A DNA stretch of 64,000 bases from Escherichia coli (GTDB lineage: Bacteria; Pseudomonadota; Gammaproteobacteria; Enterobacterales; Enterobacteriaceae). The position numbers were made by a program, and so were the translations under genes. The DNA lies in assembly GCF_030384885.1 (NCBI RefSeq), contig NZ_CP128613.1. One strand, written 5' to 3'. A model generated the notes under the pieces. It was not told where the DNA came from and did no database searches. It saw only the letters and a program-made list of their open reading frames with translations. Below are positions 34,119 through 51,333 of this stretch, piece by piece (within the stretch, counting starts at the first letter, position 1; each line of letters starts with the position of its first letter).

Positions 34119-34159
34119 GCCGGATGCGACAACAACATCGCATCCGGTCAGCACGCAAC

Positions 34160-41193: not shown

Positions 41194-41239
41194 TTTCTTA
41201 TTCCTCTTTAAACCTGTCTGAACCGTTAACAACCGCGCA

Positions 41240-41276
41240 ATAAAAAAGCCCCCGGAAGGTGATCTTCCGGGGGCTT
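41240..41276 (-). terminator. his attenuator (rho-independent terminator between hisL and hisG)
   Basis: On - strand: gcccccggaagatcaccttccgggggc followed by ttttttatt. Confidence 0.9.
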
Positions 41277-41338
41277 TCTCATGCGTTCATGCACCACTGG
41301 AAGATCTGAATGTCTTCCAGCACACATCGCCTGAAAGA

Positions 41339-41389
41339 CTAGTCAGGATGATGGTGATGATGGTGGTGTTTAAATTGAACGCGTGTCAT
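41339..41389 (-). CDS. hisL: his operon leader peptide MTRVQFKHHHHHHHPD
   Basis: 16-codon ORF with seven consecutive His codons, read directly from the reverse complement of 41339-41389. Confidence 0.95.
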   Translation of the reverse strand: MTRVQFKHHHHHHHPD

Positions 41390-41610
41390 AAAAGTCTCTG
41401 TGAATGTTTATTCAACTGATGTCTTTTAACCTAAACCACTTTCACGTTAGAAAGCAAGGGCTTTTTTATATATTTTATGGCGATGGATTTGTTTAATGAA
41501 TGAGCGGGGAAAGGAGAGGGCCAGGAGTGGCTACGTTAAAAAAGTAATCGTGAAAATATGTCTTTAAAACCCTCAAGAACATTGTGTTCTGTAACTAAAG
41601 TGGGCTTGGT

Positions 41611-41715
41611 TCCTGCCGGATGCGGCGTGAATGCCTTATCTGGTCTACAAATGTTGCCTAAATTCAATATATTGATGTTTTTGTAGGACTGATAAGCGGA
41701 GCGCATCAGGCAATT
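41611..41715. repeat. BIME: two REP palindromes in the hisL-yeeZ intergenic region
   Basis: gcctgccggatgcggcgtgaatgccttatctggtctac and inverted copy gtaggactgataagcggagcgcatcaggc. Confidence 0.75.
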
Positions 41716-41815
41716 GTATATTTGCTAACAGTTTCGATTTCATTCATAGAATGAATTGTCAGTTTTGATACGCTAGCGTAGCCTTATAGATCTAAGGTGT
41801 ATCAGGAGATAACGG

Positions 41816-43881: not shown

Positions 43882-45240
43882 ATGTCGCATAACGTTACTC
43901 CAAACACCTCTCGCGTGGAATTGCGTAAAACGCTTACGTTAGTTCCGGTTGTAATGATGGGTCTTGCCTATATGCAGCCGATGACGCTGTTTGATACATT
44001 TGGTATCGTTTCAGGCCTCACGGATGGTCATGTGCCGACAGCCTATGCGTTCGCATTGATTGCGATCCTGTTTACGGCTCTGAGCTACGGGAAGCTGGTT
44101 CGCCGCTATCCTTCTGCTGGCTCTGCATACACTTACGCCCAGAAATCCATTAGCCCGACCGTCGGCTTTATGGTGGGTTGGTCTTCTCTGCTCGACTATC
44201 TGTTCGCGCCGATGATCAACATTCTGCTGGCGAAAATCTATTTTGAAGCTCTGGTGCCTTCCATTCCATCGTGGATGTTTGTGGTGGCGCTGGTGGCCTT
44301 TATGACCGCCTTTAACCTGCGTAGTCTGAAATCCGTAGCGAACTTCAACACCGTCATCGTGGTGTTGCAGGTAGTGCTGATCGCGGTAATTCTGGGCATG
44401 GTAGTTTACGGCGTATTTGAAGGTGAAGGCGCTGGTACGCTGGCGAGCACTCGTCCGTTCTGGTCTGGTGATGCACATGTCATTCCGATGATCACTGGTG
44501 CGACGATTCTGTGCTTCTCCTTTACCGGCTTTGACGGCATCAGCAACTTGTCGGAAGAAACCAAAGATGCAGAGCGCGTGATCCCGCGTGCAATTTTCCT
44601 GACCGCGCTTATCGGTGGCATGATCTTCATCTTTGCAACTTACTTCCTGCAACTGTACTTCCCGGATATCTCTCGCTTTAAAGATCCGGATGCGTCACAG
44701 CCTGAAATCATGCTGTATGTTGCGGGTAAAGCGTTCCAGGTCGGCGCGCTGATCTTCTCCACCATTACCGTACTGGCGTCCGGTATGGCGGCGCACGCAG
44801 GCGTAGCGCGTCTGATGTACGTAATGGGTCGTGACGGCGTGTTCCCGAAAAGCTTCTTCGGTTATGTGCACCCGAAATGGCGTACTCCGGCAATGAACAT
44901 CATCCTGGTTGGCGCGATTGCCCTGCTGGCAATCAACTTTGACCTGGTAATGGCTACGGCGCTGATTAACTTTGGTGCGCTGGTGGCGTTCACCTTCGTT
45001 AACCTGTCGGTTATCTCGCAGTTCTGGATCCGTGAGAAGCGTAACAAGACGTTGAAAGATCACTTCCAGTATCTGTTCCTGCCGATGTGTGGTGCGCTGA
45101 CCGTTGGTGCGCTGTGGGTTAACCTGGAAGAAAGCTCAATGGTTCTGGGTTTGATCTGGGCGGCAATCGGTCTGATTTACTTGGCTTGTGTCACCAAGAG
45201 CTTCCGTAACCCGGTTCCGCAGTACGAAGACGTTGCATAA
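43882..45240 (+). CDS. plaP: Putrescine importer PlaP (APC family), 452 aa
   Basis: 12-TM amino acid/polyamine permease; start [11 protein letters not shown] with RBS aaggag 7 nt upstream. Confidence 0.9.
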
Positions 45241-45278
45241 TCTTACAAGCCGGATGACATAATCATCCGGTAAATCTC

Positions 45279-45310
45279 AAAAAGCCGGAGTTTGTCGCTC
45301 CGGCTTTTTT
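45279..45310. terminator. Bidirectional rho-independent terminator between convergent plaP and sbcB
   Basis: aaaaagccggagtttgtcgctccggctttttt (perfect 7-bp stem flanked by A5 and T6). Confidence 0.85.
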
Positions 45311-45313
45311 GTT

Positions 45314-46741
45314 TCAGACGATCTCTTCCGCGTACTGCCAAAGCGCTTTTAACAGCGCCACTTTCTCTTTGTCATCGGCATATTGTTGTGCCAGCATCTG
45401 CAATTCATCAGCATAGCCCTGCAAAAACTCTGGCGTGAAAACCTGGCGGCGGTGCTCCAGCCAGCGTTGCTGCTCGGCATAATCCAGCGTCCCCGGGAAG
45501 TTGCGCGCCCGATAATTGAACAACAGCTTTTCAATCCGTTTATCAACAAAAGTGATATCCAGTGCCGGTAAATTACGCGGCTCGGTTTCCAGCACAATTT
45601 TCATTGCTGCACGATCGGCGTCACTGAAAAAGCCATTATAAAGCTGTGCATCCACGTTATCTGAAGGCGTAAACGGTTCGGCTTCGGCGAATATCGCCAC
45701 CACTTTTTCACGCACTTGCGGATTTTCACGCAGAATTTTCAGGTTATCGAGGCAATGCTGACGATTAATTCCCAGTCGGTCGGCATCTTCCGGGCGTAGC
45801 GTATTCGCCTGGGCCAGCACCGGACATTTATTGATATGCACCAGTTTAACCGGAACGGCGGCGTTATCGCCAAGATCGGCTTTTGCGGTATATAAACGCT
45901 CGCGCAATGTGTCGCTATCCAGCTCCAGTAATGGCGAAATGTCTCCTGCCAAATCCACCATAATTACGGCATTGCGATTTTCAGGATGCCACGCCAGCGG
46001 TGCCACCCAGCTGGTATTGCCACGCCATGCCCCAAACATTCCGGAAACGTGAACCAGGGGTTTCATCTGCGGAACATCAATCAACGCCATCAGTTTGTGT
46101 TTATTACGATGGGTAAAGAGATAATCAAACAGGCGTGGCTGACGCGTTTTTACCAGTTTCGCCATCGCAATAGTGGCGTACACATCAGCCATCGCATCGT
46201 GGGCGTTGCTATGTTCAATACCATTCGCTTTGGTTAAATGCTCAAGGCGAAAGCTCGGTAGACCGTCATCATTTTCAGGCCAGTTTATTCCTTCCGGGCG
46301 CAGGGCATAACAGGCACGCATAACATCCAGTAAATCCCAGCGCGAGTTATCATGCTGCCAGCTCCAGGCGTAAGGATCGTAGAAATTACGATAAAAAACG
46401 TTGCGTGTGACTTCGTCGTCGAAACGCACATTGTTGTAGCCCAGAATACAGGTCTTCGGTACGGTAAAAAGCGAGTGAATACGGGCGGCAAACGCGGCTT
46501 CGTTTTCTCCTTTCGCCCGTGCCTCCTGCGGGGTAATACCGGTAATTAATACTGCTTCAGGCTGGGGTAAATAGTCATCCGCGGGCTTGCAGTAAAAGAC
46601 TTCGGGTTCGCCGATGACATTGAATTCGTTATCAGTGCGAATGGCTGCGAACTGTGCAGGGCGATCTAACGCGGGGTGCGTTCCAAAGGTTTCGTAATCG
46701 TGAAACAAAAAGGTAGATTGTTGCTTACCGTCATTCATCAT
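45314..46741 (-). CDS. sbcB: Exodeoxyribonuclease I, 475 aa
   Basis: DnaQ-like exonuclease N-terminus FLFHDYETFGTHPALDRPAQFAAIRTD; start set to MMNDGKQQ. Confidence 0.95.
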   Translation of the reverse strand: MMNDGKQQSTFLFHDYETFGTHPALDRPAQFAAIRTDNEFNVIGEPEVFYCKPADDYLPQPEAVLITGITPQEARAKGENEAAFAARIHSLFTVPKTCILGYNNVRFDDEVTRNVFYRNFYDPYAWSWQHDNSRWDLLDVMRACYALRPEGINWPENDDGLPSFRLEHLTKANGIEHSNAHDAMADVYATIAMAKLVKTRQPRLFDYLFTHRNKHKLMALIDVPQMKPLVHVSGMFGAWRGNTSWVAPLAWHPENRNAVIMVDLAGDISPLLELDSDTLRERLYTAKADLGDNAAVPVKLVHINKCPVLAQANTLRPEDADRLGINRQHCLDNLKILRENPQVREKVVAIFAEAEPFTPSDNVDAQLYNGFFSDADRAAMKIVLETEPRNLPALDITFVDKRIEKLLFNYRARNFPGTLDYAEQQRWLEHRRQVFTPEFLQGYADELQMLAQQYADDKEKVALLKALWQYAEEIV

Positions 46742-50565: not shown

Positions 50566-50841
50566 TTAGCGACAGCCTTCTTCTGTATGCAGCAAGGCAA
50601 AAAGTTCTGTAACTCCATTGTTATTAACCGCACTGGTTACTAACACGTTGTGCGCTCCAGCTTCCCGTAACCAACATTTCACCAAAGATATTTGTTCCAT
50701 ACTGGCTAAATCTGCTTTGGTTACTACTCCAATGACCGGGCGATTCATTGACGAGGTAAAGCCTGGCGAAAAAGGTGACCACGGTGCGTCCGCATTAAGT
50801 ACCAGCGCGATAATGTCTGCTTCGCAGGCACTGACCAACAA
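50566..50841 (-). pseudogene. yoeF: C-terminal fragment of an EutP/PduV-family GTPase (yoeF-like remnant)
   Basis: 91-aa ORF resembling the C-terminal half of EutP/PduV (…[12 protein letters not shown]…); no P-loop N-terminus present. Confidence 0.5.
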
Positions 50842-51200
50842 TGCACTGTAAAGGCGGCGATTTTATTGGTGAGGACTGGCAGCAAGATTTCCAGCCTCTT
50901 AACGGTGGGCCTGTGCAATCGTTATCAGATGCGTATAGCGATTATTCAGTGCTGCTATTGATAGCAGCTGAAAGCGAGATATCCGTTCCAGAATGGTTCC
51001 CTCATTCTGAGGGAACGACGGTAATTTTGATTGCAGAACACAATGCCCGTTTGCTGAATGGTCCGGCTGGTGGGGCTGTAGCATTAATCCATTATTTGAA
51101 TGAAATCTGTCATGCCAGAGAAACCGCTGTCAATGACGCATTTTGTCGGACGTTAACACGAGGAAGTCTGGCTATTCCGCAATGCCATCTTCTTTCGTAA
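50841..51200 (+). pseudogene. Possible 3' remnant of cbiP (cobyric acid synthase) immediately upstream of cobU
   Basis: 119-aa ORF co-directional with and directly upstream of cobU, where cbiP sits in Salmonella; identity not verified. Confidence 0.25.
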
Positions 51201-51333
51201 TGGATTGAGAATGCTGGATTTTTAATTATATTACGCGCAGTATTAATCGCGTAAATGTTTTGCGGTCAGCAACGGTGGGGGATCCATTGTTCTGTTCAAT
51301 GAATACCATCATACAATTGAATCAGGAGTCGGT

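Follow-up and report, generated by a model that had tools for sequence, protein, structure and literature searches.

A widespread empty-site allele of the tsuAB (yeeED) locus, with plaP and sbcB converging on a putative shared terminator, in Escherichia coli

The genes plaP and sbcB are direct neighbours in the stretch of DNA analyzed here (64,000 nucleotides, in the following called the window), which matches the chromosome of E. coli 2013C-4282 (NZ_CP027579.1, a closed genome of 5.03 Mb) with 100% identity. This fully sequenced, stx1-positive strain belongs to Escherichia cryptic clade I (PMC10100065). The annotated gene order around the junction is hisC, hisD, hisG, hisL / yeeZ, yeeY, yoeI, plaP / sbcB / dacD, sbmC, yeeA, tmaR. 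NCBIfam, by which SbcB, DacD, SbmC and TmaR are named, and the RefSeq annotation are concordant on the identities of the genes. The features of the junction are as follows.

43882-45240, + strand: plaP (yeeF), putrescine/H+ symporter (RefSeq annotation of the identical record NZ_CP027579.1)
45238-45240, + strand: plaP stop codon TAA (read from the sequence)
45241-45313: spacer of 73 bp, the 'empty-site' allele of the tsuAB (yeeED) locus (BLAST against K-12)
45249-45271: hairpin 1, GCCGGATGA-CATAA-TCATCCGGT, with REP-like ends and no clean U-tract (RNA folding)
45279-45310, both strands: hairpin 2, putative bidirectional intrinsic terminator common to plaP and sbcB (both strands fold; conservation, RNAalifold)
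45279-45283: A5 tract of hairpin 2 (T5 on the - strand)
45284-45290: stem GCCGGAG
45291-45297: loop TTTGTCG
45298-45304: stem CTCCGGC
45305-45310, + strand: T6 tract
45313/45314: counterpart of the site where IS200C is inserted in ST131-type genomes (the window has no IS)
45314-45316, - strand: sbcB stop codon TGA (read from the sequence)
45314-46741, - strand: sbcB, exodeoxyribonuclease I (NCBIfam NF008746, 816 bits; RefSeq annotation)

An earlier sequence-only reading of the window had described plaP and sbcB as directly convergent and separated by only 73 bp, and both statements are correct. The two genes lie on opposite strands with their stop codons facing each other, and because the plaP stop ends at 45240 and the sbcB stop starts at 45314, the spacer measures exactly 73 bp. 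The same reading had placed two hairpins in the spacer, and folding returned precisely these two, at 45249-45271 and 45279-45310.

Some observations were made on the genes around the junction. The yefM-yoeB toxin-antitoxin pair, which K-12 and E. whittamii carry between yeeZ and hisL, is missing between hisG/hisL and yeeZ of the window (41233-41815), where tblastn gave no match and none is annotated; it is likewise missing in O157 Sakai (Iguchi et al. 2011, PMC3158064). Downstream of tmaR (50566-51879) a truncated EutP/PduV-family pseudogene and a hypothetical gene are followed by cobU and cobS, while in K-12 the CP4-44 cryptic prophage remnant adjoins tmaR. In the middle of plaP (about 44257-44632) the window shows 10–12 differences per 150 bp from K-12 as well as from EC958 and only 3–6 per 150 bp from E. 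whittamii. Judged from these divergences, the patch looks like a recombination mosaic, despite a PlaP protein that is 100% identical to the one of K-12.

Hairpin 2 reads A5-GCCGGAG-TTTGTCG-CTCCGGC-T6, and the A5 and T6 tracts around it would thus provide a U-tract on both transcripts. RNA folding of 45238-45320 gave -19.6 kcal/mol on the + strand and -18.3 kcal/mol on the - strand for this hairpin (45279-45309/10), with z of about -5.4 to -5.9. Over all folds z ranged from -5.4 to -6.6, and in every case 0 of 200 shuffles were as stable as the native folds. Folding was used in place of a consensus terminator pattern scan, which did not pick up hairpin 2, probably because its A- and T-tracts pair together and so use up the tail that the scan needs. 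An Rfam scan of 44900-45700 returned nothing but a chance match (UCA1, E = 0.84).

Hairpin 1 consists of the arms GCCGGAUGA and UCAUCCGGU around a 5-nt loop (9 pairs, -14.4 kcal/mol, z = -6.1), and its pattern has a single match in the window. REP elements were defined as imperfect palindromes of about 35 bp with the ends GCCGGATG...ATCCGGC and many copies; the ends of hairpin 1 (GCCGGATGA...TCATCCGGT) fit those of REP elements, its length being only 23 nt. The sole other CCGGATG...CATCCGG palindrome in the window (34120-34147, CCGGATGCGACAACAACATCGCATCCGG) is REP-like in the same manner, and full-length REP-like palindromes occupy the position of hairpin 1 in the spacers of Enterobacter and some Citrobacter. 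In E. whittamii one arm of hairpin 1 carries a mismatch, and the hairpin itself was not found in the empty spacers of other genera. A role as 3'-end stabiliser or back-up barrier is possible, which we put forward with low confidence; given the mismatch in E. whittamii and the lack of the hairpin in other genera, it may also be without function.

In MG1655 the order is sbcB (b2011), tsuB/yeeD (b2012), tsuA/yeeE (b2013) and plaP (b2014), with a stop-to-stop spacer of 1520 bp between sbcB and plaP. This agrees with the statement of the sequence-only reading that yeeE and yeeD lie between the two genes in K-12, and their suspected absence at this position of the window is borne out. A BLAST comparison of 44700-45900 with the K-12 locus returned two blocks (96.7% and 97.8% identity), of which one extends 2 nt beyond the plaP stop and the other ends at the sbcB stop, so that homology to K-12 breaks off at both stop codons. 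When K-12 TsuA and TsuB were searched against the whole 64-kb window by tblastn, no homologue was found (best E-values 2.7 and 0.56). A TsuA/TsuB pair, i.e. a PF04143 gene next to a TusA-family PF01206 gene, is not present in the window; in tsuAB-positive contigs this pair is called between plaP and sbcB. An exact-protein look-up of PlaP led to E. coli contexts only, all of them tsuAB-positive, and to no outgroups.

Within the spacer, the only similarity to the 1520 bp of K-12 is a 14-nt match, GCTCCGG(C/T)TTTTTT, which is the core of the terminator adjoining plaP. Gene residues or K-12-type flank residues, as a deletion scar would leave them, were not found at the junction.

The distribution of the two arrangements in E. 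coli was determined in a sample of 5426 complete genomes, 5424 of which match the flanks. The plaP-sbcB junction was present as one contiguous place, either contiguous or IS-interrupted, in 1213 of the 5426 genomes (about 22%), and it was uninterrupted in 782. The K-12 tsuAB spacer DNA was found in 4209 of the 5426, with a median of one place each and 4220 places altogether, only one of which is on a plasmid. Both classes add up to 5422 of the 5424 flank-matching genomes; in effect the locus thus has two alleles, and a genome with the empty junction has no tsuAB at another place. From these counts we infer that a copy of tsuAB elsewhere in the genome of 2013C-4282 is very unlikely. They bear equally on the suggestion that tsuAB has moved within the genome or that the junction is an assembly artefact, which is hardly conceivable given that NZ_CP027579.1 is closed and that the junction recurs in 1213 independent complete genomes. 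Nothing about the window supports such an artefact, even though the related record CP078573.1 does show a run of Ns at this site.

That record (L097, 4929-6446) has a gap between sbcB and plaP of 1520 bases, exactly the length of the K-12 spacer, and was considered as a tsuAB-positive relative. It was rejected as such because the gap is filled with Ns; their probable source is a reference-guided assembly that padded the missing tsuAB region. The same record carries a 1.3-kb insert in dacD.

The 73-bp spacer is identical in the loci L096 and L098 and near-identical in the B2 strain EC958. Among 24 contigs with an identical SbcB, three distinct places were shown, two with the identical 73-bp spacer and a third filled with Ns; another 21 places were grouped with one of the three on account of their similarity. 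In EC958 (ST131, B2; L083 2115-2824) an IS200C element lies between ...CTCCGGCTTTTTTGTT, the T-tract of the terminator, and the sbcB stop codon, and thereby parts sbcB from the terminator. IS200C is located at the junction in roughly 430 complete genomes (1213 minus 782). The arrangement has been in print since 2011, when E. coli strains without yeeD/yeeE (O157:non-H7) and another with an IS200-like element between sbcB and yeeF were reported (Iguchi et al. 2011, PMC3158064).

For the situation outside E. coli, an SbcB scan of species-representative genomes was used, which gave at least 80 Enterobacteriaceae loci in which the neighbour genes were placed by tblastn; E. coli, E. albertii, E. fergusonii, E. 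marmotae and Salmonella are not among the matches listed. About 70 other Enterobacteriaceae species among the matches listed display both states at exactly the same site. In detail, tsuB-tsuA was found between sbcB and plaP in 21 of the listed loci, including some Citrobacter, Kluyvera, some Kosakonia, Superficieibacter, Pseudocitrobacter, Huaxiibacter, Siccibacter and Trabulsiella. A further 51 of the listed loci are devoid of tsuAB, including those of E. whittamii, the C. freundii complex, Enterobacter, Phytobacter, other Kosakonia, Lelliottia, Leclercia and Pseudescherichia. Even a single genus may contain both states, as Citrobacter, Kosakonia, Kluyvera, Enterobacter and others show each of them at the identical site. 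E. whittamii (L004) has the same 73-bp spacer as the window, with differences at 4 of 73 positions.

In the tsuAB-positive species, DNA identity to K-12 is 72–80% for tsuA and 74–86% for tsuB, compared with 75–82% for the flanking sbcB and 72–80% for dacD. The cassette has diverged in step with sbcB and dacD and has thus long been resident at the site. Occupied loci contain a separate GC-rich hairpin beside tsuB which faces sbcB, and in empty lineages the distance from the sbcB stop to the A-tract ranges from 3 nt to about 70 nt. Other genes are found in the gap as well: an EF-G paralogue together with a helix-turn-helix gene in Klebsiella/Raoultella (L049 8430-11420), and in Pseudocitrobacter vendiensis (L064 8430-14210) a 5.8-kb lipid-metabolism gene cluster comprising a CDP-alcohol phosphatidyltransferase, a cytidylyltransferase, an acyltransferase, a hydrolase-methyltransferase and a phosphatase. 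In Escherichia sp. MOD1-EC7003 (L003 8426-8709) the contig ends within an IS256-family transposase gene just after sbcB.

A separate observation concerns plaP itself. When compared with K-12, PlaP of the loci L004-L082 falls into two classes irrespective of the genus, with 96–100% or 85–90% identity of the protein and about 87–89% or 80–84% of the DNA. Both classes occur within Citrobacter, Enterobacter and Kluyvera (e.g. L046 8491-9846 versus L048 5275-6630), the DNA identity of sbcB being uniformly 75–82%. This pattern suggests that two old plaP allele classes may have been exchanged between genera.

The order A-tract, CCGGAG-type stem, variable loop, complementary stem and T-tract adjoins plaP in 72 of 73 loci, empty and occupied alike. 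RNAalifold on 40 distinct versions of the terminator gave 9 pairs, 5 of them with double-sided compensatory changes such as GCCAGC/GCTGGC or GGCTCC/GGAGCC in place of CCGGAG/CTCCGG. The most economical reading of these sequences is that 45279-45310 acts as a two-way intrinsic terminator for both convergent genes. The bidirectional terminator put forward in the sequence-only reading is supported to this extent, the stem-loop being predicted to fold on both transcripts with a U-tract 3' of it on either strand and being conserved with covariation.

The length of the sbcB-sense T-run differs between the two states, its median being 6 where the site is empty (51 loci) and 3 where tsuAB is present (21 loci; Mann-Whitney p = 4e-7, with kinship ignored), while the plaP-sense run is about 7 nt in both. 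In the CCGGAG terminator of K-12 the sbcB-sense T-run amounts to 3, in the window to 5. This relation between sbcB-sense T-tract length and tsuAB occupancy is the sole new quantitative observation of our analysis.

As to how the empty state arose, one suggestion would be that yeeE-yeeD was deleted recently and in this strain only, the ancestor having been K-12-like. The genes are indeed present here in K-12 and in most E. coli genomes, and genuine recent deletions occur: in E. coli HH45 (L084 4179-5031) an internal part of the cassette has been lost, leaving only an N-terminal tsuA fragment (a pseudogene) and a shortened TusA-family gene. The 73-bp spacer, however, contains no such gene remnant and no K-12-type flank, the sbcB stop differs by allele (TGA here, TAA in K-12), and the examined closest relatives of 2013C-4282 lack tsuAB too. 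The same spacer is moreover shared by 1213 genomes, by ST131 of phylogroup B2 and, with the few differences given above, by the separate species E. whittamii. A similarity to TACTGRCTG in the empty spacers of other genera, noted by eye and considered as a remnant of the tsuA promoter, was rejected since it was not significant against shuffles (p = 0.14–0.76), and this speaks against a recent deletion as well. Because remnants are missing, the spacer is common to several lineages and species, and the partial deletion of HH45 looks different, we regard a fresh deletion as excluded for practical purposes, retaining for it a very small likelihood only. The claim of the sequence-only reading that the absence of yeeE-yeeD is a strain-specific difference has consequently to be dropped, as about 22% of complete E. 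coli genomes share the allele with E. whittamii and many other Enterobacteriaceae, and as it has been known in print since 2011.

Two older histories are left. The empty state might be derived. In this case the ancestor from which Escherichia, Citrobacter, Kluyvera and Kosakonia descend would have had tsuAB at the site; at least one loss would have followed, and homologous recombination, to which the his/O-antigen neighbourhood is prone, would have spread the empty allele. The divergence of tsuA and tsuB from K-12, which tracks that of the flanking sbcB and dacD, is what long vertical residence predicts, and 21 species of many genera among the matches listed have the cassette in exactly the same place. 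Independent breakpoints would in addition account for the variable distance from the sbcB stop to the A-tract, and large fragments including the his operon are known to be transferred with O-antigen clusters (PMC3158064). However, no empty spacer contains a statistically supported remnant of the cassette, and all of them are uniformly clean in appearance. We give this history about an even chance.

Alternatively, the empty state might be ancestral, and a single ancient insertion might have placed tsuAB between the sbcB stop and the plaP terminator, followed by exchange through recombination. Empty loci outnumber occupied ones among the matches listed (51 versus 21) and have kept a fully bidirectional terminator; the cassette resembles a self-contained module with its own promoter and terminator, and the same gap holds other cargo in Klebsiella/Raoultella and in P. 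vendiensis. On the other hand, there are no mobile-element signatures (repeats, integrase) around the cassette, and since the divergence of tsuAB tracks that of the flanking genes, any insertion must pre-date the genera. This origin appears credible to us at somewhat less than even odds. In a sliding-window comparison that also included E. whittamii, the last 150 bp of sbcB group by allele, with 2 differences between the window and EC958 versus 7 between the window and K-12, and plaP does not group in this manner. This hints at a linkage of the sbcB 3'-end to the allele class without being decisive.

Tentatively, the gap between sbcB and plaP may be viewed as an ancient cargo slot of the Enterobacteriaceae, in which tsuAB would represent a presence/absence polymorphism across species, maintained through recombination and perhaps also through balancing selection on the use of thiosulfate in the gut. 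The plaP terminator might then co-evolve with the occupancy of the slot, being two-way when it is empty and effectively one-way when it is filled.

The explanation we favour for the junction itself, with a probability of about 0.9, is that the window carries the empty-site allele of the tsuAB locus, in which plaP and sbcB share a two-way terminator and the TsuA/TsuB route is missing. This allele appears to be old and widespread, plaP and sbcB abutting on each other with one presumably Rho-independent terminator between them. The T6 run of the hairpin at 45279-45310 would end the plaP transcript and the T5 run on the other strand the sbcB transcript. The alternative allele, found in K-12 and in about 78% of complete E. 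coli genomes, has a cassette of 1.45 kb between sbcB and the same terminator. This cassette comprises the tsuA promoter, tsuA, tsuB and a separate GC-rich terminator, in which case the CCGGAG hairpin would stop plaP only. The segment 45279-45310 thus may offer a tidy natural case of a terminator that is two-way or one-way depending on the surrounding gene arrangement. The observation which started this analysis is correct, and the arrangement is a common, already described and ordinary natural variation.

Thiosulfate is imported by TsuA together with TsuB and by the CysP/CysUWA ABC system, and a Delta-cysPUWA Delta-yeeE double mutant does not grow on thiosulfate as sole sulfur source (PMC11073785). 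The sequence-only reading had expected a difference in sulfur-source transport capacity. This holds insofar as a strain without tsuAB is without the TsuA/TsuB route, but the effect is probably modest, since CysP/CysUWA also imports thiosulfate. The cysPUWAM genes, which encode the main thiosulfate/sulfate importer, are present at at least 80% coverage in 5425 of the 5426 complete E. coli genomes; the strain therefore very probably keeps the CysP/CysUWA route, and the functional loss is probably small. Only a redundant transport route is removed, and no more than a subtle phenotype is to be expected of the empty allele. Strains lacking tsuAB would rely on CysP/CysUWA alone for thiosulfate import, which could slightly alter sulfur assimilation where thiosulfate is abundant, e.g. 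in the inflamed gut. In addition, whether the junction is empty or occupied can serve as a simple marker close to the his/O-antigen recombination hot spot, and the tsuAB-less arrangement is now shown in a stx1-positive strain of cryptic clade I, as in the ST131 (B2) strain EC958 and in E. whittamii.

In comparison with the K-12 locus, the window has the same flanking genes (yeeZ, yeeY, yoeI, plaP / sbcB, dacD, sbmC, yeeA, tmaR) in the same order and orientation, with 96.8% DNA identity for plaP and 98.0% for sbcB, and both have the CCGGAG-stem terminator adjoining plaP. Unlike the window, K-12 contains the 1520-bp spacer with tsuA, tsuB, a promoter region and a second GC-rich terminator (CCTCCGCCG...CGGCGGAGG) beside sbcB, and its sbcB ends with TAA instead of TGA. 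The TsuA/TsuB (YeeE/YeeD) system is thus the occupant of the site in the alternative allele and is missing from the window. Iguchi et al. (2011, PMC3158064) reported the same presence/absence difference at the same locus, and their IS200-like element matches that of EC958. Their report is a passing mention in a study on the transfer of O-antigen clusters, in which the spacer, the shared terminator and the distribution outside E. coli are not described, and the strain of the window differs from theirs in belonging to cryptic clade I and in having no IS at the site.

Finally, the predicted terminator can be compared with a known class of elements. Bidirectional intrinsic terminators are known to occur between convergent bacterial genes, as seen in full-length RNA profiling of E. 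coli. Like these, the element at 45279-45310 is a GC-rich hairpin with a flanking A- and T-tract which is located between convergent stop codons and folds on both strands, and it shows nothing unusual beyond the longer sbcB-sense T-tract in species without the tsuAB cassette.
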